Source: Candidatus Omnitrophota bacterium
GTDB taxonomy: Bacteria > Omnitrophota > Gorgyraeia > Gygaellales > Profunditerraquicolaceae
DNA: 56,874 nucleotides
Assembly: GCA_016208765.1 (NCBI GenBank)
Contig: JACQXK010000015.1
Span: forward strand, 1 to 56,874
Direction: 5' to 3'
Below are positions 3,066-52,488 of this stretch, in pieces. The translations under genes were made by a program, and so were the position numbers. How positions within the stretch are numbered: the stretch's first letter is position 1; every line of letters starts with the position of its first letter. The notes beneath the pieces were generated by a model. That model was not told the DNA's origin and did no database searches. It worked only from the letters and a program-made list of their open reading frames with translations.

Positions 3066-6000
3066 ATGAAGAAGACCCTTCTTATAGGCACGTTGATTCT
3101 TTCTTTTTTTCTGTTTCAATCCCCTCTTTATGCCTTAAATCAAATCCCGGAATTACTCTGTGAATTAGGTGTTAAATTATATCGCAGCGGAAGATATGCT
3201 GAGGCCTTACATGAGTTCAAGAAAGCCCTTATTGCCAATCCTAATTATATTCCAGCTAAAAAATATATTAAAATGATGGAGCAGGCTAATCTTGCCGAGC
3301 CTGAGATTGTGCCATCTACTTTTAAACCTATCAGCCCTGAGCCAAAGGGCGCTATGAATGAGCTTTTGGATTTAATTGATTTGCAAAGAGAAATGATCCG
3401 GGATAAAGAGTTGATCCAGGTGGAAACGGTTAAGAAAAAAGAGAAGCCTGAAATACCAGCTAAGAAGAAAATTAAGAAACTCAAGACACCGGTTGCAATT
3501 ACCAAGCCGGCTAAGGCGGAAGTTAAACAACCCCAGCCTATTGTCCAACCGAATAAACCAATTGTTGTGCGGCCTAAGCCAGTTGTCAAACAAGATGTGC
3601 AGCCAGCTAAGCAGGGAATTCAGCCAACGGAAATAGTGGTAAAACCATCAGGAACGGCTATTGAGCCAACTAAACTGGCTGAGCAACCAGCCAAGACAGC
3701 AGCTGTTCAGTCTTTAGAGGAAGTTATACAGCCGCCGGAGACAGTTTCCCTGCCAACTACGACAGCTGGTTCTTTGTCATTGCGCGAGGCTAAAGAAAGC
3801 GAAGCAATTTTACTATCAGAGCCTTCAGTGCCTCTTGTAACAGAAAAGAAAAAAGTAAGGGAATTTAAGCCTGCTGAACAAAATGTTATTACTTTAGATA
3901 ATTCGTTAAGCTCTATTCCAAGCCCGATAGAAATTGAAATGGGCAAATCTTTTATTATCAAGGGGAATAATATTTCGCGATATTTAATTACTCAGCCTAA
4001 GTTGGCTAAAGTTCAAAAGAATGGCCCTAATGAATTAATTGTTACCGGTGAAGAGGTTGGTTATACCCAGCTTTTTGTCTGGGATGATTCCGGCCGTTGG
4101 AGCATGGACTTTTTGGGGATACTCCCAAAGCCAGAGGGCCCTACTTATGAAGAGACAATCCGCAAAGAACAGGAGAGGTCGCGGAATTTTCGTTTAAGAT
4201 ATAATCTGGATTGGGTAACTTATGAAGCTGGTAAAGGTGTTTCAGATTTAAAAAGAAGTTCTTATTACTGGACGCATTCTTTGTCGTTGAATGGCCCTAC
4301 TCCTTACGGCGATTTAGATTCTGCTTTTACTATACGCAGGTTAAATATTAATACTGACCTTACTTATCTTACCTTTGGCCTGACTAACGGAGTTTTTGGT
4401 AATTTTAAAGGGTTTAGCCTCAGGGGCATGGATTACAATCCGAATTTTACGAATTTGGCTTTCCAGGGAACTACTTTGCGCGGAGTGATGTTTTCTTCAC
4501 CTGCGTTTAATAATAAATTTAATTATACCACATTTTGGGGAAGAGAAGGTGGTGGCCGTTATGGAAATCTTTCTCCTACTCTTTCCAAAACAGAAAATTC
4601 GTTTATAGCAGGAACTAATTTGCAATATACGCCTACTGACAAACAAAATTATAAATTTACTGTTGTTCATGGCTGGGGCAGGGACAGGGAACCTCTTTTA
4701 AATAAATATGATTACGATTTAATGGGAGACTGGAAGTTGAACAAGCTTTGGGGAATGGGTTATGAAATTGCAAACGATTCTGAAAGATTCGCCCATCTTT
4801 TTAATATTCGTTACCGTAAGCCAAAACTTAGCTTTACTACTGAGCTTCGCAATATTGACAAAGCCTTTAACAGTATTACCAGCCGAGGCTGGAGGCAGGG
4901 TGAATTGGGTGCGTTATTAAATTTAAATTACCAGCCTACTGAAAAATTAAGGATCACCTCAAGCCTTGATGCATACCAAGACAGGCTGTATCCGGCGCTT
5001 GATAATCCCCAGCGCTGGAATCAGGATTTCAATTATAATATGTCTTATCAGGTAGATAATCTGACTGGGGTAAATCTGAGCTATCTTTTGAATAACGACC
5101 AGGGCCGTCTTTCTGAAATACGTTTTCAGAGCCCGGGAATTGGCATCAACAGAGATTTTAATTTATTTAAGAAGAGGCTTTCAACTTATTTTAATTATTA
5201 CCATCAGGAGAATACAAATTTTACTGCGCACAGCGTTGATTATGTTAATGATAAATATTTGGCAGGCCTTCGTTTGGGTATTTTTGGAGGCTTATATTAT
5301 TACGCTAACAAAGAATATAACATGGTAATTGAAGAATCTACTTCAACCCACGCCAATCCTAATGCTTTTGAAACCGGCCTTGACTGGTCCGATCAAATAG
5401 GCAAGACGCCGTTTTTTGGAAACTTACGGTTTACCTATCGCGATGAGGAAGAAACAGATACAAGGATATCATTTTTGTCAGGTCAGGATTATATAGAGGG
5501 TTATTCAAGGTTATCGTATAAACCAAACGCCGATACTGAGGTTTATGGCTCTGCTCGTTTTCGCAATTTATGGGCGGATAATCCTCTGGTAACCAAGGGT
5601 GTTAATATGGATTTTAACGCAGGTATTCGTTATTCCTGGGATACCGGTGTTCACTGGGATGCAGTGGGTAATATTGAAGGTTATGTTTTTAAAGATTTTA
5701 ATTCTGACGGATTAAGGCAGCGCGATGAGCCTCCGGTTGAGGGCATAAAAATATGGCTTGGAAAAAATAAATTTCAGGTAACTGATCTGTTTGGTTATTA
5801 TAAATTTAAAGGTGTCAGGGCGCGTAAGGCGTTCGTCAGCCTTGATGCGACTACTTTGCCAAGAGGTTATATTGTTACCGTGCCTTTAGTGCAAGAGGTT
5901 CCGATTATAAATCATCGCACGCAAAAGGCTGATTTTGGCGTTATTTCCGAGACAGAAATCAGTGGGTGTATATTTGAAGATATTGATGGAAATGGCGAAT

Positions 6001-30658: not shown

Positions 30659-31049
30659 AATTAGAAGGTTAAAAGTTTTCCGCCACCTTTTTCGCTTCCG
30701 CGGGTTTTTAAATGGGTTTAAATATGCGATATTGGGTATAGGGTATTTATTTTTGTACCACCGCAATATGCGCGTAATTTTTCTTTTTGGTATTGCGGCT
30801 TTTTTGGGCGGGGTTTATTTAAAGTTAAAAGGCATAGAATTGGCCGCGCTTTGTATTACGATCACCCTGGTTTTTATGGCCGAGATATTTAATACTGCTA
30901 TTGAGTTGGTGTTAGATATGACCACAAGAAAATACCACGCGCTTGTAAAATTAGTTAAAGATATTTCAGCTGCAGTGGTTTTGATCGCCTCAATAAATGC
31001 CGTTGCAGTCGGTACAATACTATTTACCAAAAAAATCTTTGGTTATTAG
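30639..31049 (+). CDS. dgkA: diacylglycerol/undecaprenol kinase family membrane protein
   Basis: AEIFNTAIELVLD motif, three TM helices, ~130 aa. Confidence 0.8.
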   Translation: MLIEKSKIRRLKVFRHLFRFRGFLNGFKYAILGIGYLFLYHRNMRVIFLFGIAAFLGGVYLKLKGIELAALCITITLVFMAEIFNTAIELVLDMTTRKYHALVKLVKDISAAVVLIASINAVAVGTILFTKKIFGY

Positions 31050-31056
31050 ATAAATT

Positions 31057-31065
31057 TGGTATAAT
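31057..31065 (+). promoter_or_regulatory. extended -10 element upstream of tRNA(CAU)
   Basis: TGgTATAAT lies 34 nt upstream of the mature tRNA 5' end. Confidence 0.4.
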
Positions 31066-31098
31066 ATTTGCTCGTTATTGTTTTGATAATTAGATTTC

Positions 31099-31172
31099 GG
31101 CGGAGTAGCTCAGCCTGATAGAGCACGCGGCTCATACCCGCTTGGTCGGTGGTTTAAATCCACTCTCCGCCA
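31099..31172 (+). tRNA. tRNA with CAU anticodon (Met, or Ile2 after lysidinylation)
   Basis: Cloverleaf: GGCGGAG/CTCCGCC acceptor stem, GCTC/GAGC D stem, anticodon loop CTCATAC, T arm GGTGG-TTTAAAT-CCACT, discriminator A. 74 nt, no encoded CCA. Confidence 0.88.
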
Positions 31173-31321
31173 TAAATTGCCAGCTATAGCTTAATCGGCA
31201 AAATAAACAGTGGTACTTTGAGCGAGCTATTAGGGAGGCTATGATGAGCGAAAAAGTGCCAGTCGCCGCCACTAAATTTTGATAGAATATTGCTAACAGT
31301 TATTCAAGAAATGGAGGTTAA

Positions 31322-31711
31322 ATGGCAAAGAAAATTGTGAGCTTGGTTTTTGTTTCTTTCTTTGTTTTAAATTTAGCTGGTTGCATTCCTTTGTTAGCAG
31401 GCGCTGCCGGAGGCGGTGGAACTGCGGTTTGGCTTTCAGGTAAATTATCGCAGGAAGTAGAGGGCTCGTTTGATAAAACAATTGAAGCGGCAAAAAAGGC
31501 TTTGCGTTCAATGGACCTGGAAGTAACTAAGACGACTGTAGATAAAAATATTGCCCAGATTATGAGCAAATATACTGATGGCAAGACTATATGGATTGAT
31601 GTGCGAAGGATCAGCCAAAAGCGTTCAAAGGTGGATGTAAGAGTTGGTGTAATTGAAGGTGATAAAGAGGCGGCAGATAAAATATTAAAGAAGATTGAAA
31701 GATATTTATAA
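31322..31711 (+). CDS. small lipoprotein (DUF3568-like)
   Basis: GGAGG SD. Lipobox LNLAGC after a signal peptide. Gly-rich segment GAAGGGGTAVW. Confidence 0.7.
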   Translation: MAKKIVSLVFVSFFVLNLAGCIPLLAGAAGGGGTAVWLSGKLSQEVEGSFDKTIEAAKKALRSMDLEVTKTTVDKNIAQIMSKYTDGKTIWIDVRRISQKRSKVDVRVGVIEGDKEAADKILKKIERYL

Positions 31712-31727
31712 TTTGATTTATTTGGAT

Positions 31728-31778
31728 AAGGGGCGGCTTCTTGTTGATGATAACTGTGAAACGCCCCTTATTATTTTA
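31728..31778 (+). terminator. possible intrinsic terminator
   Basis: AAGGGGCG..(26 nt)..CGCCCCTT followed by ATTATTTT. The large loop lowers confidence. Confidence 0.4.
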
Positions 31779-31780
31779 AA

Positions 31781-32764
31781 ATGTTTCTGAAAAAAGCCCA
31801 AGATACAATTAAAAAGTATAACTTGATTAAAAAAGATGATCGTATTGTTATTGGTGTCTCCGGAGGCCCGGATTCTTTAGCATTGTTATTTCTGTTGCAC
31901 AGCCTAAGAGATGAAATGCAGCTTGTTTTGCACGTGGCGCATTTGGATCATATGTTGCGCAAAGATTCTCATAAAGATGCGCAGTTCGTAAAAATTGCCT
32001 CCGAGAGGCTCGGGATCCCTGTTACCTGCGGTAAGGCCGATGTAAAAAAACTGGTTGTTAACGGGTCTTTTGAAGAAGCAGCCAGAAATGCGCGCTTTGC
32101 GTTTTTCTTAGAAACGGCAAAGAAAATAAATGCAAAGAAAATTGCCTTAGGGCATAACCTTGATGACCAGGCAGAGACTGTATTGATGCGCTTTTTGCGC
32201 GGAAGCGGGCTTTACGGTTTAGCAGGAATTATTCCAAAAAGAAAAATTTATGGCCTTGAAATTATCAGGCCGTTAATTGAAATAAAAAGAAGTGGAATTG
32301 AGGCATATTTAAAAAACAAGGGCATTAAGCCGCGTATTGACATTACAAATTCTCAGGATATTTATTTTCGCAACAAAATCCGCAATAGGCTCCTGCCGCT
32401 TTTGGAAAAGGAATATAACAAAAATATTAAAGAGGTATTGGCAAATACCGCCCAAAGCCTGGGGGCTGATTATGATTATCTTGATAAGATTGCACAAGCT
32501 TGGCTAAAGGGAAAGAGCACAAGGCTTGATATCGCAAAACTTGTTTTACTGCATCAGGCAATCAGGCGTTTAGTTTTTCGTAAGGCGATTGCAGCAGTTA
32601 AAGGAGATATCCGTCGTATTAGTTTTCAGCACATCAGGGAAATTGAGGATCTTTTACAGAGCCGCCCTGTAAATTCTATTGTTGACCTGCCTAAAGGAGT
32701 TTCTGTCTTAAAAAAACAGAAATTCCTGGTTTTTTATCTTAGGAAATCACGCACAAATGCTTGA
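31781..32764 (+). CDS. tilS: tRNA(Ile)-lysidine synthase
   Basis: PP-loop VIGVSGGPDSLALL and HLDHMLR, ~327 aa. The position upstream of ftsH is the classical arrangement. Confidence 0.9.
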   Translation: MFLKKAQDTIKKYNLIKKDDRIVIGVSGGPDSLALLFLLHSLRDEMQLVLHVAHLDHMLRKDSHKDAQFVKIASERLGIPVTCGKADVKKLVVNGSFEEAARNARFAFFLETAKKINAKKIALGHNLDDQAETVLMRFLRGSGLYGLAGIIPKRKIYGLEIIRPLIEIKRSGIEAYLKNKGIKPRIDITNSQDIYFRNKIRNRLLPLLEKEYNKNIKEVLANTAQSLGADYDYLDKIAQAWLKGKSTRLDIAKLVLLHQAIRRLVFRKAIAAVKGDIRRISFQHIREIEDLLQSRPVNSIVDLPKGVSVLKKQKFLVFYLRKSRTNA

Positions 32765-32830
32765 TTTTATATATACTTAGGGCTATAATAATAAATCTAA
32801 ATTAAATAATCCATTACAATAGGGGAGAAT

Positions 32831-35365
32831 ATGGCTAATAATAAGTCAAAAAAGAATAATGTTTTGAAACGCATTCCTTTCGGTTTAATTTTCGCTGTAC
32901 TTATAGTTTTAATCGTTATTAATTCTATGAGCGGGCCTTTTCCGGGGCTTCCTCAGGAAAAAAGCTACAGCGATTTTTATCACCTCTTAAAAGAAAACCC
33001 TGAGAAAATTAAATTCGTTACAAAGACTGAAACCGTTCTGCAGGGTGAGCTTACGGATAATTCAAAGTTTTTTGTGCACATTCCTGATAATGACCAGGAA
33101 TTGCTTAGCTTAATGCGCACGAATTTGAAGAATTTTGATGTAAAGCCGCCGCGCACTTTCTGGGCGGGGCTTCTTTTTAATCTGGGGCCTATTTTGTTGT
33201 TGATACTTTTTTGGTGGTTCATGGCTGCCCGCGGCGAGCAACTGGGTTCAAGGATCATGTCTTTTGGAAAGATCCGCCCGAAGATACATACTGAAACAGA
33301 GAAGGCAACCTTTGATGATGTTGCCGGAGTTGATGAAGCAAAGGAAGAATTAAAAGAGGTTATTGAGTTTTTAATGGATCCGAAAAAATTTCAGAAGCTC
33401 GGAGGAAAGATTCCGAAAGGAGTCTTGTTGGTTGGGCCTCCTGGTTGCGGCAAGACTTTGATTGCGCGGGCAGTTGCCGGTGAGGCGGGCGTGCCGTTTT
33501 TTAGTATCTCAGGCTCTGATTTTGTGGAGATGTTTGTGGGTGTTGGAGCAAGCAGAGTGCGCGATTTATTTGAACAGGGCCGGCGTGCTGCAAAAACTTC
33601 CGGTAAAGGGGCAATAATTTTTATTGATGAAATTGACGCTGTGGGAAGGTTGCGGTTTTCCGGGATTGGCGGCGGGCATGATGAACGCGAGCAAACTTTA
33701 AATGCCTTGCTTGTTGAAATGGATGGTTTTGATACTTTACAGGGCTTGATCCTTATTGCGGCAACTAATCGTCCGGATACGCTTGATCCTGCATTGATGC
33801 GGCCGGGTAGATTTGACCGCAACATTATAGTTAATTTACCGGATATCAGGGGCCGTGAAGAAATACTCAAAGTCCATACCCGTAAAATTAAGTTGGCTGA
33901 AAATGTTAATTTAAAGTCACTTGCTTCACAGACTCCTGGTTTTTCAGGAGCTGATCTTGCCAATCTTTGTAATGAAGCGGCATTATTGGCTGCAAGGCAT
34001 AATAAAGAAACTGTGGAGATGATTGATTTTGAGAAGTCAGTGGAAAGAGTGTTGATGGGCCCGGAGAAAAAGAGCCATATTATGTCCAAGAAAGAAAAAG
34101 AAATTACATCTTTGCATGAATCAGGGCACGCGTTAATGTCTTTGTTGCTTCCGGAAGTAAACCCTTTAAAGAAAGTTTCTATTATTCCGCGTGGTTTGGC
34201 AGGCGGATATACATTCACTCCTCCGTTAGAAGACAGGCATTATTGGACAAAAAAAGAATTAATCGCAGAGATTACAATGATGCTTGGCGGAAGAGCTTCG
34301 GAAGAAATTTGCTTAAGCGAGGTAACTACCGGGGCCCAGAACGACCTTGAGATGGCCACGCAAATGGCGCGCAGGATGGTTACTCAATTTGGCATGTCTG
34401 AAAAATTAGGGCATATAACTTTAGGCAGGCGCGAAGGCCTGGTATTTTTAGGCCGGGATATTGCTGAAGAGAGAAATTATAGCGATGAAACCGCGCACCT
34501 TATTGATGAAGAAGTCAAGAAGATCATTGATGAAGGGTATTTAAAAGCAAAGGAAATGTTAAAACAAAACTTAGAGAACTTAAGGCTGCTTTCGAATACC
34601 TTGCTTGAGAAAGAAGTGATGGACGGAGAAGCGGTAAAGCAATTGCTGATTAAGATCATGGCGCCTAAGGCAATGCATTATCTGGTGAGGCTAAATTCAA
34701 TTTCCAATATCTGTGCAAATATATTAAAACAGGATATGCTTTCTTTGGGAGGAGAGGTTGCTGTCTGCCGAGGCGCCTTAACCGGAGAAGTCAAGAAAAC
34801 AGATTGCCTTGTGATGGGCAATCTCTTGCAGCTTAGCCGGCTTGCAGGCAAGGTCTCCAGGCAGCCATTTGGATTGGACAAGGTTTCTCAGCATCTATTG
34901 TGTGCTCTCGCCAATTATTCCCGCCATGATTTTATTTTGAAGGTGGGGAAATTCAGGCTTAATCTTGGCAAGCGCGTCCATTTGATGGGTGTATTGAATT
35001 TGACTCAGGATTCTTTTAGCAAAGACGGGTTGTATTCGCACTCTCTCAGGGAAATTAAAAGCTATGCGTTGAAAATGGTACGAGACGGAGCGGATATCCT
35101 TGATATAGGCGGAGAATCATCGCGGCCCGGAGCAAAAGTTCTGTCTGCGAAAGAAGAGATAAAGAGAATAATTCCGTTAATCAAATCACTGGTTAAAAAA
35201 ATAAAAGTTCCCGTATCTGTTGATACTTATAAGCCTGAAGTTGCTAAAGCTGCATTAGACAATGGGGCTTTAATTGTCAATGATATAACCGGGTTAAGAA
35301 GTGCAGTAATGGCAAAAGTTGTTGCCAGATATAAAGCTGGCTTGGTGATCATGCATATGAAGTGA
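32831..35365 (+). CDS. ftsH: ATP-dependent zinc metalloprotease FtsH, reading on without a stop into the N-terminal two thirds of FolP
   Basis: Walker [32 protein letters not shown], zinc site HESGHAL. From about aa 610 (nt 34658) the same frame encodes FolP sequence ([13 protein letters not shown].., [32 protein letters not shown]). Confidence 0.85.
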
Positions 35366-35761
35366 ATGCCGTCTAATATGCAGAATAATCCTGAATATAA
35401 ATCTTTGCTCGTTGAGATCATTGAATATTTAGATTCAGCGATCAAGCGAGCGCAGGAAGCAGGAATAGATAAAGAAAAAATTATTGTTGATCCTGGCATT
35501 GGATTTGGGAAAACAGTTGAGCATAATTTAGAGATTTTAAACAGGCTTTCGGAGTTAAGGGTTTTAGGCAGGCCGATTTTAATAGGTACTTCAAGAAAGT
35601 CTTTTATCGGGAAAATACTGGGCCTTAAGCCTGAAGAAAGGCTGTCCGGAACAATTTCCAGCTGCGTGTTAGCAGCTTCAGCTGGAGCAAGGGTATTAAG
35701 GGTGCATGATGTTAAAGAGGTAAAAGAGGCATTAAAGATCTACGAGGCGATAAATGGATAG
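34658..35761 (+). pseudogene. folP: dihydropteroate synthase, lacking its own upstream stop/RBS context and interrupted by an in-frame TGA at 35363..35365
   Basis: The two listed ORFs (..35365 and 35366..35761) are in the same frame. The junction VIMHMK-TGA-MPSNMQNNPEY aligns with E. coli LMHMQ-G-NPKTMQEAPKY (from memory). The downstream half carries DPGIGFGK and GTSRKSFIG. Confidence 0.75.
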
Positions 35762-36527
35762 TTTAAATTTTATTTTAATACATTGGCGGCCGGCACTAGA
35801 GATCCTTATTTTATGGTTTTTGATTTATCATATTATGCTTTTCTTTGAAGGCACCCGCGCGATACAGGTACTGCGAGGGATTGTTATTCTTTTAGTCATT
35901 TTCTTTGTTTTTCAGTTTTTTAATTTCAGCATACTTGACTGGATAATGACTAAGCTTTTTGCAATTTCTGTTATTGCGATATTTATTATTTTCGCCCCCG
36001 AGATCAGGCAGGGCCTGGCAAGGCTTGGTCAGCGTAATTTATTCGGGACAACTTTGCCTCCGGAGGAATGGGATTCTGTTTTAAAAGAGGTCTGTAATGC
36101 TTCAGAGAATCTTTCTAAGCAAAGGATAGGTGCGTTGATCGCCATAGAAAAGAATGATCCTTTATCTGCTTATATTGAAAGCGGAGTTATGGTTGATGGA
36201 AAGGTTTCTTCAGATTTATTGGAAACAGTCTTTACTCCTAAAAGCATGCTTCATGATGGCGGGGTTGTTATACAGTTTGGCCGCCTTGCTGCCGCAGGAT
36301 GCATATTTCCCTTAAATCAACATCAGGAACTTAGCCGCGTTTTTGGCACGCGCCACCGTGCTGCGCTTGGTTTAAGCGATGAAACCGATTCGCTTATTAT
36401 TGTTGTATCTGAGGAAAGGCAGGACATTACTTTAGTGTATCGGGGAAGGATGTATAAAGACTTAAGCTCGGAGGAATTATTTACAAAGACAAGGGAATTT
36501 ATAAAACTAAAAAAAGAAAATGAGTAA
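35754..36527 (+). CDS. cdaA: diadenylate cyclase (c-di-AMP synthase), membrane-anchored
   Basis: Three N-terminal TM helices. DAC domain motifs HDGGVVI and GTRHRAALGLSDETDSLIIVVSEE. Confidence 0.9.
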   Translation: MDSLNFILIHWRPALEILILWFLIYHIMLFFEGTRAIQVLRGIVILLVIFFVFQFFNFSILDWIMTKLFAISVIAIFIIFAPEIRQGLARLGQRNLFGTTLPPEEWDSVLKEVCNASENLSKQRIGALIAIEKNDPLSAYIESGVMVDGKVSSDLLETVFTPKSMLHDGGVVIQFGRLAAAGCIFPLNQHQELSRVFGTRHRAALGLSDETDSLIIVVSEERQDITLVYRGRMYKDLSSEELFTKTREFIKLKKENE

Positions 36528-36660
36528 AGAAAAGGCATCTATTGTTTACCGCATAAAGCACTGTTTTACTTATCATCCGGCCTTAAAAATAGTTTCGTTG
36601 ATCCTGGCTGTGGTTGTCTGGTTTTATGTCAGGGGAGAAATCTCAAGGTTTAACTTTTAA
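36520..36660 (+). pseudogene. 46-codon remnant of a CdaR/YbbR-like regulator (TM helix only)
   Basis: MSKEKASIVYRIKHCFTYHPALKIVSLILAVVVWFYVRGE.. matches the characteristic N-terminal anchor of YbbR-domain proteins, which normally follow cdaA. No YbbR domains follow, and pdxJ starts 2 nt later. Confidence 0.45.
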
Positions 36661-36661
36661 G

Positions 36662-37372
36662 ATGCCAAGATTGGGAGTAAATATTGATCATGTGGCAACC
36701 TTAAGAGAGGCGCGTAAAGGTATTGAGCCCGAGCCTGTTATGGCAGCTTTATTGGCTCAGGCATCCGGAGCTGATTCAATAGTGGTGCATTTACGCGAGG
36801 ATCGCAGGCATATCAAAGACAGCGATGTTTTTAATCTAAGAAATATATTACATACGCGTTTGAATCTTGAGATGTCAGCTGCTGATGAGATTGTTGATAT
36901 TGCCTGTAAAGTTGTGCCTGACCAGGCGACGCTTGTGCCTGAAAAAAGGCAGGAGCTGACTACTGAAGGCGGATTAGATGTGGCAAACAATTTCAATAAG
37001 CTAAATAAGGCCATTAAGAAATTAAAAGATCACAATATTGAAGTAAGTTTGTTTATAGACCCTGATAAGAAACAAATTTCTGCAGCAAAAAAGATTGGCG
37101 CAAGCATGATTGAGATTCATACTGGAAGATTTGCTGATGCCACAAGTAAAAATGAAGAGGATAAATATTTCAAGGAAATAAAACTTTCAACCGTATTTGC
37201 CAGAAAGATCGGTTTATCCGTTAATGCCGGGCATGGTTTAAATTATCATAATGTCAGCCGTATTGCAAAAATCACCGGGATAGAAGAATTGAACATAGGT
37301 CATTCTATAATTTGCCGCTCGGTGTTTGTAGGGTTAGGCAGGGCGGTAGAAGAAATGAAGGCTTTGATATGA
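36662..37372 (+). CDS. pdxJ: pyridoxine 5'-phosphate synthase
   Basis: MPRLGVNIDHVATLREAR start, preferred over the listed 36614 start. HLREDRRHI and EIHTG motifs. Confidence 0.9.
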   Translation: MPRLGVNIDHVATLREARKGIEPEPVMAALLAQASGADSIVVHLREDRRHIKDSDVFNLRNILHTRLNLEMSAADEIVDIACKVVPDQATLVPEKRQELTTEGGLDVANNFNKLNKAIKKLKDHNIEVSLFIDPDKKQISAAKKIGASMIEIHTGRFADATSKNEEDKYFKEIKLSTVFARKIGLSVNAGHGLNYHNVSRIAKITGIEELNIGHSIICRSVFVGLGRAVEEMKALI

Positions 37373-37725
37373 TCATTGGAACAGGCGTGGATATTACTGA
37401 AGTAAGGCGCCTTAAGCAGGCGGTTGAAAAATGGGGGGATGCTTTTTTAAATCGTTTGTTTACGGATAATGAATTGGAGAATGCCAAAACGCGCGGAAGT
37501 TTATACCAGCACCTTGCCGGAAGATTCGCCGCAAAAGAAGCAATTTTTAAAGCAATGGGTGATGCGGATTTGAGCTGGAAAGACGTGCAGATACTTAACG
37601 ATAAAGATGGCAGGCCATGTTGCAGTATTTTAAACGGGCGCGGCAAGAATGTAGATGTGCATATTTCCATTTCTCATGTAAAAAGCTATGCGACTGCCTT
37701 TGCGATTGTTACAAAGAAGCCCTGA
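37369..37725 (+). CDS. acpS: holo-[acyl-carrier-protein] synthase
   Basis: ATGA overlap with pdxJ. MIIGTGVDITEVRR, FAAKEAIFKA and ISISH motifs. Confidence 0.88.
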   Translation: MIIGTGVDITEVRRLKQAVEKWGDAFLNRLFTDNELENAKTRGSLYQHLAGRFAAKEAIFKAMGDADLSWKDVQILNDKDGRPCCSILNGRGKNVDVHISISHVKSYATAFAIVTKKP

Positions 37726-38551
37726 TTCACATAAGGGAGATTTCGGCCATATTTTTATTCTTGCCGGCTCTGCGCGGTTTTCCGGGGCAGCTGTCCTTTG
37801 TGCGGGCGCGGCAATGCGCTCCGGCTCAGGGATGGTAACCTTGGGTATCCCTAAAGGCATTAATAATGCTGTTATAAAAATTAAGCCTTTGGAGGTGATC
37901 ACGCTGCCTTTGCCTGAAACACAAGAAAAGACATTAAGTTTGGCCGGGCTCAAGAAAATTTACGATTTTTCAAAAAAGACCGATGTCTTGATAGTTGGGC
38001 CGGGGCTATCCCAAAACAAAAACACACAGTTATTAATACGTAAAGTAATCTCAAAAATCTCTAAGCCTATGGTTATTGACGCTGACGGGCTTAATGCATT
38101 AGCAGGGCATTTGAATATTCTGAAAAAAAATGCCAAACGAAAACTGAAAATTATATTAACGCCACACCCGGGTGAGATGGCGCGGCTTTTAGATGTTAGT
38201 GTAAGAGAGGTGCAGGAGAATAGAAAAAAGGTTGCACAAAAATTAGCTTGCGATTATAATATTACAGTTGTCTTAAAGGGTTCTAAGACGATAGTTACAG
38301 ATTCCGAAGGTAATTTTTACGAGAATAGAACCGGAAATCCAGGGATGAGCTCTGCAGGAACAGGGGATGTCCTTAGCGGGATAATCGCCAGTTTCTTGGG
38401 ACAGAAGTTAAGCGTTTTTGAAGCGGCAAAATACGCTGTGTATCTGCATGGTTTAGCCGGCGATTTAGCAGCTAAAGATAAAACTCAGCTTGGATTAATT
38501 GCTTCGGATATAATTGAAAATATTCCTCGGGCGATTAAGATTTGTTCTTAA
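37688..38551 (+). CDS. nnrD: ADP-dependent NAD(P)H-hydrate dehydratase (YjeF C-terminal type, no epimerase domain)
   Basis: HKGDFGHIFILAGS, VIDADGLN and AGTGDVLSG motifs. Confidence 0.85.
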   Translation: MRLPLRLLQRSPDSHKGDFGHIFILAGSARFSGAAVLCAGAAMRSGSGMVTLGIPKGINNAVIKIKPLEVITLPLPETQEKTLSLAGLKKIYDFSKKTDVLIVGPGLSQNKNTQLLIRKVISKISKPMVIDADGLNALAGHLNILKKNAKRKLKIILTPHPGEMARLLDVSVREVQENRKKVAQKLACDYNITVVLKGSKTIVTDSEGNFYENRTGNPGMSSAGTGDVLSGIIASFLGQKLSVFEAAKYAVYLHGLAGDLAAKDKTQLGLIASDIIENIPRAIKICS

Positions 38552-38579
38552 AGATGTTTTAAAAGAGTTAAGATGATTC

Positions 38580-38652
38580 GCCGGCGTAGCTCAGTTGGTA
38601 GAGCGTCTGTTTTGTAAACAGATGGTCGGGGGTTCGATTCCTCTCGCCGGCT
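38580..38652 (+). tRNA. tRNA-Thr(UGU)
   Basis: GCCGGCG/CGCCGGC acceptor stem, anticodon loop TTTGTAA, T loop TTCGATT. 73 nt. Confidence 0.9.
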
Positions 38653-38664
38653 TTGAAAAATTAT

Positions 38665-38747
38665 GGGTAGGTACCCAAGTGGCCAAAGGGGGCAGACTGT
38701 AAATCTGCTGCACCTGTGCTTCAGAGGTTCGAATCCTCTCCTGCCCA
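38665..38747 (+). tRNA. tRNA-Tyr(GUA), class II with long variable arm
   Basis: GGGTAGG/CCTGCCC acceptor stem, anticodon loop CTGTAAA, 14-nt variable arm, T loop TTCGAAT. 83 nt. Confidence 0.9.
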
Positions 38748-38870
38748 TTAAATTTTTACGACAAGGAAAAATTTAATGGCACTTGAGCGAGGAAAAGCGC
38801 CGCGACAAGCGACGCCCGAGCGAAAGTGCATATACTTTGTCTTTGACGCTGCTTGTAGAACAATAGATTC

Positions 38871-38941
38871 GCGGGAGTAGTTCAGTGGTAGAACAATAGC
38901 CTTCCAAGCTATATATGAGGGTTCGATTCCCTTCTCCCGCT
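38871..38941 (+). tRNA. tRNA-Gly(UCC)
   Basis: GCGGGAG/CTCCCGC acceptor stem, anticodon loop CTTCCAA, T loop TTCGATT. 71 nt. Confidence 0.9.
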
Positions 38942-39029
38942 TTTGATAATTCAGGTCCTGTGGCCTTGCGGCCCCAGGATTAAAATTTCAGAATTGAAAG
39001 AGGTAAAGAAAGAGAAATCTGCCAAAGAT

Positions 39030-49871: not shown

Positions 49872-51533
49872 ATGGAAATCCCATCTCGTTACAATCCAAA
49901 AGAAACCGAAGATAAATGGTATAAATTCTGGCAAGAGCAAGGCTTTTTTGCAGCAAAGCCAAACCCTGATAAAAAGCCATTTACCATTGTTATCCCTCCG
50001 CCCAATGTTACGGGTATTCTGCATATGGGGCATGCTTTAAATAATACTATTCAGGATATTCTTATTCGTTACCATCGTGCAAAAGGCGAAGAAGCGCTTT
50101 GGATGCCGGGCACTGACCACGCGGGTATTGCCACGCAAAATGTGGTAGAAAAGTCTATCGCTAAAGAAGGCTTAAAGCGCAATGATTTAGGAAGGGGAAG
50201 ATTTATTGAACGCGTATGGCTTTGGAAAGAGCAATACGGCTCAACAATTATCAAGCAGCTAAAAAAACTCGGCGCTTCTTGTGACTGGGATCGTATTCGT
50301 TTTACCATGGATGAGGATTATTCCAAGTCAGTTCTTGAGGTTTTCGTCCGCCTCTACGAAAAAGGCCTTATATATCGGGGCAGTTATATTATTAACTGGT
50401 GTCCGCGTTGTCAGACTGCCTTGTCTGATGAAGAAGCGCCTCATCATGAGCTGCAGGGAAATCTTTATTATCTGAAGTATCCATTGAAGGATAATCCTGA
50501 TGAGTTTGTGGTTGTGGCGACGACGCGCCCTGAAACCATGCTTGGTGATACTGCTGTTGCGGTTAATCCCAAAGATAAAAGGTATAAGAAACTGATTGGA
50601 AAAAGTTTGATTTTGCCGCTTGTAAATCGCGAGATAAAGATTATAGCTGACAGTATGATAGATGCTAAGTTTGGCACCGGTGCAGTTAAAGTTACCCCTG
50701 CGCATGATCCAAATGATTATGCAATGGGTAAAAAGCATGATCTTGAATTTGTTAATGTGATGTATCCGGATGGCAGGATGAATGAATCAGCCGGCGACTA
50801 TAAGGGTATGGACCGGTTTGAGGCAAGAGAAGTAATTTTAGAGGACTTAAAAGAAAAAGGCCTGTTAGAAAAAATTGAGCCGCATACTTTGTCAGCCGGG
50901 CATTGTTATCGCTGCCATACAATCATTGAGCCGTATTTGTCTAAACAGTGGTTTGTTAAAATGGCTCCATTGGCAAAGCCAGCTATAGAGGCAGTTAAAA
51001 AAGGTAAGATAAAGTTTTATCCCAAGCGCTGGACTAAAGTATATTTAAACTGGATGGAGAATATCCAGGATTGGTGTATTTCAAGGCAGATTTGGTGGGG
51101 GCATCGTTTGCCTGTTTACTATTGTAAAAAATGCGAAGAGGCTCAAAAAACTGGAGTTATTGTTTCCCGCGACAGGCCTGAAAAGTGCCCGGAGTGCGGG
51201 TCAATAGATATTTATCAGGATGAAGATGTTTTGGATACCTGGTTCTCAAGCTGGCTCTGGCCATTCGCTACATTTTATTGGCCGTTTGATGGCCGCCAGT
51301 TTGTTGGACAGGAGACAGGAGACAGGAGACAGGAAGATCTCAAGTATTTTTACCCTACCTCCGCTCTTGTGACTGCTCCGGAAATTATCTTTTTCTGGGT
51401 AGCGCGCATGATTATGGCAGGTTTGGAATTTATGAATGAGATCCCGTTTAAGGATGTGTATATCCATGGCACGGTGCGTGATATTGAAGGTAAGAAAATG
51501 TCCAAGTCTCTGGGCAATATTATTGTTATCTAA
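49872..51533 (+). pseudogene. valS: valyl-tRNA synthetase, N-terminal 553 codons (catalytic + editing domains), ending 9 codons after KMSKS
   Basis: HIGH-type motif [15 protein letters not shown], a CP1 editing domain, and [10 protein letters not shown] followed by VI-stop instead of the conserved DP..[8 protein letters not shown]. Confidence 0.85.
51306..51334 (+). repeat. heptanucleotide tandem array (GGAGACA, about 4 units) inside valS
   Basis: The sequence is ggaca ggagaca ggagaca ggagaca gga. In frame it encodes [10 protein letters not shown]. Confidence 0.95.
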
Positions 51534-52488
51534 GGAGAGGCTTGAGCAAGGCAGGAACTTTGCCAATAAAATCTGGAATGCTTCGCGATTTATCCTGATG
51601 AACCTGGATGCCCAGAATATCCGGGTAGATTTGTGCCAATTTACAAAAAAAGAAGACCTGAGTTTGGTAAATCGCTGGATCTTGAGCCGTTTTTATTCGG
51701 TGCTTAAAGAATTAAATAAAAATCTTGATAATTTTAAATTTAATGAAGCCGCAAACCTTTTATATAGTTTTTTCTGGCATGAATTCTGCGATTGGTATTT
51801 AGAATTGGCAAAGCCAATTTTGGTTAACAGAGAACAGAGTACAGAGAACAGAAATACGCAGGTGGTAATGTACAAGGTGCTGGAGAAGTTTTTAAGAGCG
51901 CTGCATCCGTTTATGCCTTTTATTACCGAGGAGATTTGGCAGAATTTACCGCACGAAGGTAAGTCTATAATGGTTCAGCCGATTCCTCATTTGCAAGAGG
52001 CGTTAATTGACAAAAAGATTGAAAATAAAGTTGGAGTTGTGTTTGATGTAATTACGACTATTAGAAATATGCGCGTAGAATTGGAGGTTTTACCTCAGGA
52101 TAAAGTTAATGTAGAAATATTTTCCGGTAAAACCATGAAAATTACGCTTGAGTTAATGTCGCAGGATATAAAAAACTTGGCAAAAATTGATTGTTTAAGC
52201 CTTCAGGAAAATTATCAGCACAAGAGCGGCCAGTTTGTAAATGTTTTAAAAGATATGCATATCGTAATTCCTCTGGCAGGGCTGATTGACATTGATAAGT
52301 ATAAAGAGAAGCTAAAGCAGCGTATAGTAAAGGCAGAATCCGATATAAAAGCAAAAGAAGCTATGCTTTGTAATGATAGTTTTGTTAAACGGGCTCCGGC
52401 TGAAGTTGTGGGTAAGGAGCGGGAGAGGCTTGGGGAATTAAAGGATTCGTTGCACAAACTAAAGGCGGTGAAAGATGCCATCGGCTAA
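51529..52488 (+). pseudogene. valS: valyl-tRNA synthetase, C-terminal part (anticodon-binding + coiled coil) in a different frame
   Basis: Homology resumes at [25 protein letters not shown]. The listed upstream part of this ORF (from 51436) is out-of-frame overlap with the N-terminal part. It ends in the typical coiled coil. Confidence 0.85.

Follow-up and report, generated by a model that had tools for sequence, protein, structure and literature searches.

The in-frame TGA that interrupts a conserved glycine codon of folP in this Candidatus Omnitrophota draft genome is, with a probability that we put at roughly 85%, a defect of the deposited sequence, namely a local assembly or consensus error, rather than something the bacterium itself carries. 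The stretch analyzed (hereafter the window) comprises positions 1 to 56,874 of contig JACQXK010000015.1 (assembly GCA_016208765.1), 56,874 nucleotides in length. The window carries states of its own at four places, and contigs assembled independently from public metagenome runs contradict every one of them: the T of the TGA codon, two bases in ftsH, and a 113-base omission at the ftsH-folP junction (Table 1). The TGA in folP is at most a rare variant and otherwise an artefact, and it involves no change of the genetic code.

Table 1. Coordinates of the features discussed; positions without a contig label are those of the window.
Feature	Position	Strand	Remarks
ftsH (AAA, M41 peptidase), without its last 8 codons and stop	32831..34648	+	Pfam AAA, AAA_lid_3, Peptidase_M41
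Two window-specific bases	34579..34594	+	34579 C (contigs A); 34594 G (contigs T)
Junction, 113 bases absent	34648..34649	+	ftsH end, ftsH stop, 8-base spacer and folP start omitted
folP as in the window	34649..35761	+	Rest of the N-terminal extension plus complete pterin-binding (DHPS) domain; first ~28 codons absent
In-frame TGA at the conserved Gly codon of folP	35363..35365	+	T at 35363 is G (GGA) in independent contigs
ORF after the stop, 131 aa	35366..35761	+	Encodes the C-terminal portion of the DHPS barrel; no separate gene
valS, two ORFs in different frames	49872-52488, junction 51525/51526		86-base deletion relative to the same-genus genome G001
leuS TGA	C90:3968-3970		Cys in 7/9 relatives, Ser and Thr in the other two
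smc TGA	C106:54900-54902		Arg/Lys column
GT1 glycosyltransferase TGA	C109:10568-10570		Lys/Arg column, with other residues too
GT9 heptosyltransferase TAA	C106:28660-28662		Single Pfam domain spans the stop
murE-type Mur ligase TAA	C107:33725-33727	-	Single Pfam domain spans the stop
yebC TAA	C115:170-172	-	Single Pfam domain spans the stop
abiEii (AbiEii nucleotidyltransferase) TAA	C121:49743-49745		Single Pfam domain spans the stop

An In-Frame TGA Interrupts an Otherwise Well-Conserved folP

The window reads AAG TGA ATG at positions 35360–35368, in the frame of an 844-aa ORF (32831..35365) that ends at the TGA under translation table 11, and a second ORF opens in the same frame with the ATG immediately 3′ of the stop. 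With an X placed at the stop, Pfam Pterin_bind aligned across it over the entire profile (residues 719–959, profile positions 1–244 of 244, E = 5.6e-82), and the read-through product matched 44 distinct solved DHPS-type chains (best E = 5.8e-73). Read through the stop, the frame therefore holds the full-length pterin-binding TIM-barrel domain of a dihydropteroate synthase (FolP; PF00809, TIGR01496). A phmmer alignment with a solved E. coli-type DHPS chain places the X opposite the G of mhmqgnp, the glycine of the MHxxGxP loop.

Comparison with relatives gave the same assignment. A folP match was found in 29 of the 31 same-order genomes searched; a TGA lies inside the match only in the window's genome, and one other genome carries a TAG. 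All 11 folP loci that we fetched encode glycine at the TGA column (as GGT, GGA, GGG or GGC) in open frames of 399–415 codons with no internal stop (0/11), and a genome of the same genus (G001) reads AAA GGT ACT opposite the window's AAG TGA ATG. As a description of the window, the original prediction of an in-frame TGA at a conserved glycine codon of folP is borne out by both the domain that spans the stop and the glycine in 11 of 11 relatives.

The rest of the gene is in good condition. Stop and absent start aside, the window's folP shows one conservative departure among 113 columns that are invariant in the 11 relatives, and the orthologue from the same genus reaches 323.4 bits, compared with a TIGR01496 equivalog cut-off of 162.6. 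Among the other folate genes, whose presence the original prediction had proposed to check, folK and folC occur in the draft without interruption, and a search for folB (PF02152) in the draft found none; Pfam also detected domains of formate-tetrahydrofolate ligase and of MTHFR. The substitutions at conserved positions and the pathway loss that characterize a decaying pseudogene are not what we observed, and the suggestion that folP is decaying here finds no support in its near-perfect conservation or in the intact folK and folC.

The window's folP resembles an ordinary bacterial FolP (TIGR01496/PF00809) in its complete pterin-binding domain and in following ftsH, a gene order known from E. 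coli too; the order ftsH-folP-cdaA-like-pdxJ is conserved in the relatives that we inspected. It differs in an additional N-terminal region of about 130 residues, which is conserved in the FolP proteins of this family (residues 1–133 in G001; window positions 34649–34980) and has no match in Pfam or NCBIfam. Look-alikes of this extension in a protein atlas are stand-alone hypothetical proteins of 121–143 aa whose scores of 0.88–0.89 lie below 0.9, making them leads only.

Independent Contigs Contradict the Draft at Four Neighboring Places

We aligned Logan contigs from four public runs (X1–X4), all groundwater metagenomes from a single study, to window positions 31000–39000, so that the comparison is one of contigs with the draft. 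The runs contain between 0.51 and 0.96 of the words sampled from window positions 33800–36800, the word depth of the contigs is about 3–7, and Logan contigs lose rare variants. Four records from X1 (1, 2, 4 and 7) show no letters other than the window's across 31000–39000, indicating that they come from the same population as the window, and a fifth (record 3) has a single other letter in 34649–36669.

At position 35363 the contigs read G where the window has T in all three runs that cover it, at full depth in each (6.54/6.54 in X1, 3.7/3.7 in X3 and 3.2/3.2 in X4); X2 has no contig over 35346–35437 and is hence silent at this base. The contigs accordingly carry GGA, and folP is complete and reads ...MHMKGMP... 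behind a normal ftsH end. The ATG that follows the window's TGA is, in the X1 contigs, a plain methionine codon behind GGA. At the level of contigs, this is the very observation, GGA at the site, that the original prediction had named as the one that would overturn it.

The second place is the junction between ftsH and folP. In relatives, FtsH ends with ...LLGIEKKDVV and a stop, whereas the frame in the window continues into folP: compared with the relatives, it lacks the last 8 ftsH codons along with the stop, and also the spacer and ~28 codons at the beginning of folP. Because the 113-base omission takes away the stop of ftsH as well as the start of folP, it yields an in-frame ftsH-folP fusion, and this fusion of ftsH with the upstream half of folP had not been remarked upon in the original prediction. 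In G001 the homologous segment measures exactly 113 nt, and a 10-nt direct repeat flanks it. The X1 contig skips no window letters at 34648/34649 and carries 113 letters between the two positions; 111 extra letters precede 34649 in X2 (record 11) and 25 do so in X3 (record 20), the latter encoding the ...EIKVD..G stretch of the folP N-terminus. None of the contig pieces listed for the four runs bridges the junction as it stands in the window.

The remaining two places are single bases in ftsH. At 34579 the contigs of all four runs have A in place of C, which changes the window's AAC (Asn) to AAA (Lys), and this lysine is invariant in the nine FtsH relatives aligned; at 34594 all three covering runs have T in place of G, a synonymous difference. 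All four features that the contigs contradict lie within 785 bases (34579 to 35363), and relative to the homologues every one of the window-specific states is derived and most are damaging. A/C and G/T swaps are the commonest Illumina miscalls; all three substitutions are of these kinds, but the sites are too few for this pattern to be used.

Two further observations in the aligned region concern other matters. Position 37092 is A or G (Lys or Arg in pdxJ), with G found only in X1 and the other three runs agreeing with the window; this difference is an ordinary population polymorphism. Over a cluster of tRNA genes (Thr, Tyr, Gly; 38580–38941) contigs from many organisms align, with word depths of up to 237 and with several variant letters and joints, and these are not variants of the window's genome.

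Comparable Lesions Recur Elsewhere in the Draft

We scanned the draft in six frames for stops flanked on each side by at least 50 open codons with a codon score above 0.2, and compared the ±180 residues around each site, with an X at the stop, to Pfam. The scan returned 167 sites (109 TAA, 32 TGA and 26 TAG), the majority of which are gene junctions or antisense shadow frames. Genes are interrupted at 4 of the 32 TGA sites, 4 of the 109 TAA sites and none of the 26 TAG sites. One domain extends across the TGA in folP, in leuS and in a GT1 glycosyltransferase, and comparison with relatives shows that a fourth TGA splits smc; single Pfam domains extend across TAA in a GT9 heptosyltransferase, a murE-type Mur ligase, yebC and abiEii (Table 1). 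Since the interrupting stops comprise both TGA and TAA and fall on varied residues, the phenomenon is neither specific to TGA nor bound to one amino acid.

The leuS, smc and GT1 sites are intact in all relatives searched. In leuS, a single departure was found among 382 invariant columns, which, as far as conservation can indicate, fits one wrong base better than it fits decay. The closest LeuRS relatives bear the name Candidatus Omnitrophica or Omnitrophota. Three LeuRS proteins of 93–94% identity, from the sister species and thus outside the window's population, all have Cys at the interrupted position (3/3); an exact-pattern scan of metagenome contigs with an N at the leuS site gave 0 matches. 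The window itself contains a further lesion in valS, which is broken into two ORFs in different frames: a segment following a ten-residue stretch is lost and the frame is shifted, and the missing segment is a conserved one that lies after the KMSKS motif. Single-copy essential genes are among those struck, and no viable cell could combine all of the lesions in leuS, valS, murE and the others.

A Low-Coverage Assembly Error Is the Probable Source of the TGA

A consensus that lacks support in the population is what is expected of a local assembly error in a metagenome-assembled genome (MAG), and it is what the contigs indicate here. We infer that low coverage was the cause. On this reading, the groundwater Omnitrophota-type population represented carries GGA (Gly), and its ftsH has a normal stop, separated by the 8-base spacer from the start of folP. 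The draft departs from this population in an unsupported patch (34579–35363) in which three bases are incorrect and 113 bases between short direct repeats are omitted. Very low read depth is the most likely origin, with error-bearing contig ends joined to one another or a rare variant taken into the consensus, and the outcome would be an imitation of a broken and fused gene. Among the options named in the original prediction, base-call error survives in the form of an unsupported consensus base (G in 3/3 covering runs), recoding is excluded as far as these analyses reach, a decaying folP is not supported, and a genuine nonsense allele in a sample outside the four runs keeps a small probability.

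A published account describes local assembly errors that corrupt protein-coding genes of MAGs, which then enter public databases, and counts 13 such errors in one 1.13-Mb genome, associated with gaps and low coverage (Chen, Anantharaman, Shaiber, Eren and Banfield 2020, PMC7111523). It also presents ra2.py, a tool for checking read support. The present case resembles what is described there in its unsupported consensus, its corrupted coding genes and the occurrence of several lesions per genome, and differs in that support was judged here from the contigs of public runs and not read by read (PMC7111523).

A deletion placed exactly between short direct repeats also resembles a genuine slippage deletion, and this counts against an assembly error. 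The window could record a real strain-level allele of a subpopulation sampled outside the four runs, in which a microhomology deletion that fused folP to ftsH, together with a nonsense mutation, led to the loss of folP, and folate is scavenged. Replication slippage yields deletions between short direct repeats such as the 10-nt repeat of the same-genus sequence, a true polymorphism exists nearby at 37092 (G only in X1), and the clustering of four lesions in one gene region is compatible with such an allele. We nevertheless regard it as unlikely. None of the four window-specific states appears in any of the four runs; folP is otherwise undecayed; the draft retains folK, folC and the domains of formate-tetrahydrofolate ligase and MTHFR; an invariant lysine of the essential FtsH is hit by one of the clustered changes; and leuS, valS and murE of the same draft are likewise interrupted by stops or a deletion, which are not all possible in one cell.

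A more elaborate version, which we consider very improbable, would have the window's haplotype be real in a minority strain, with slippage fusing FtsH to the first 234 FolP residues and the remaining 131 made separately from the ATG; folate synthesis would then be lost, or a two-piece enzyme would operate with one piece tethered to a membrane protease. The T allele alone could exist as a minority, or in a source sample other than those of the four runs, because Logan contigs drop rare variants, depth is low and all runs belong to one study. Assembly error nonetheless remains our preferred explanation for the patch as a whole.

UGA Is an Ordinary Stop Codon in This Genome

Decoding of the UGA, whether by local read-through, a suppressor tRNA, a code-25-like assignment of UGA to glycine, or selenocysteine insertion, would also reconcile the stop with a functional FolP. 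The exact coincidence of the TGA with a glycine codon, one change away from GGA, and the in-frame TGAs of three other conserved genes speak for it. We consider decoding scarcely credible. The contigs read GGA. The four gene-interrupting TGAs align to differing residues (Gly, Cys, Arg/Lys and Lys/Arg), and TAA interrupts genes as frequently as TGA (four sites each, out of 109 and 32 scanned, compared with 0 of 26 for TAG). The original prediction had held that TGAs at glycine positions of many conserved genes would indicate code 25; the 4 interrupting sites among 32, at differing residues, form no such pattern.

Stop-codon usage gives the same answer. The 1688 non-overlapping ORFs of at least 150 aa end in TAA (936), TGA (442, or 26%) or TAG (310), and the observation that other genes of the window end in TGA was confirmed for 10 of its 41 ORFs of that length, a number that includes the ftsH-folP ORF. 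A stretch of at least 60 open codons in the same frame follows 4.8% of TGA-ended ORFs, as compared with 15% of TAA-ended and 13% of TAG-ended ORFs. There are fewer continuations behind TGA because TAA-ended genes more often have an immediate in-frame start; a start in frame directly after the gene (0–2 codons) is far commoner for TAA-ended than for TGA-ended genes.

The translation machinery is likewise conventional. ARAGORN identified 42 tRNAs in the draft, which is 95% complete; neither a tRNA with a UCA anticodon nor a tRNA-Sec is among the 42, and tRNAs for Ala-UGC, Ile and Asn are absent from this set too. The suggested tRNA-Gly(UCA) or suppressor tRNA was thus not encountered among them. 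The release factor 2 gene, prfB, is intact (498.7 bits versus a cut-off of 370) and retains its autoregulatory +1 frameshift site, ...AGA GGT TAT CTT TGA C... (contig C118, ~3240–3300), which whole-genome searches flagged as an internal stop. The CTT TGA C site functions only if RF2 reads UGA as a stop.

The hallmarks of a bacterial selenoprotein (tRNA-Sec, SelA, SelB, a hairpin and Cys in homologues) were not found here: selA had 0 matches in the draft, the best match to the selB model reached 174 bits against a cut-off of 242, and the homologues have Gly at this column. The original prediction's statement that no SECIS-like hairpin lies 3′ of the TGA agrees with the predicted fold of the 81 nt from the stop onward, which is indistinguishable from that of shuffled sequences (z = 0.02).

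In code 25, UGA specifies glycine. The only likeness to that code is the TGA at the conserved glycine position of folP. The differences are that UGA ends 26% of long ORFs in this draft, that RF2 is present while tRNA-Gly(UCA) was not found, that other in-frame TGAs fall at Cys and Arg/Lys columns, and that the TGA base in folP lacks support in the contigs. Stop usage, tRNA content and RF2 all argue against a sense reassignment, and UGA is an ordinary stop in the organism of this draft.

A deliberately split folP, in which termination at the TGA would be coupled to re-initiation at the directly adjacent ATG so that two half-barrels assemble, is hardly plausible despite the position of that ATG: the contigs show it as a mere methionine codon after GGA, all 11 fetched loci are unsplit with only one other stop among the 29 matched genomes, and the nearest GGTGAT lies 16 bases upstream, a spacing too great for a ribosome-binding site.

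Implications for the Species-Representative Genome

The draft serves as the representative genome of its species, and the lesson is mainly a cautionary one. A reader who trusted the sequence as it stands would infer an odd stop codon, a folate pathway that is broken and a fusion protein of FtsH with FolP, yet independent assemblies of the same population back none of the three. From the window a gene caller would output an "FtsH" of 844 aa and a "FolP" fragment of 131 aa. Similar lesions affect no fewer than eight further genes of the draft (leuS, valS, murE, smc, yebC, two glycosyltransferases and abiEii). Read support should be checked before low-coverage MAGs are scanned for recoding or pseudogenes.
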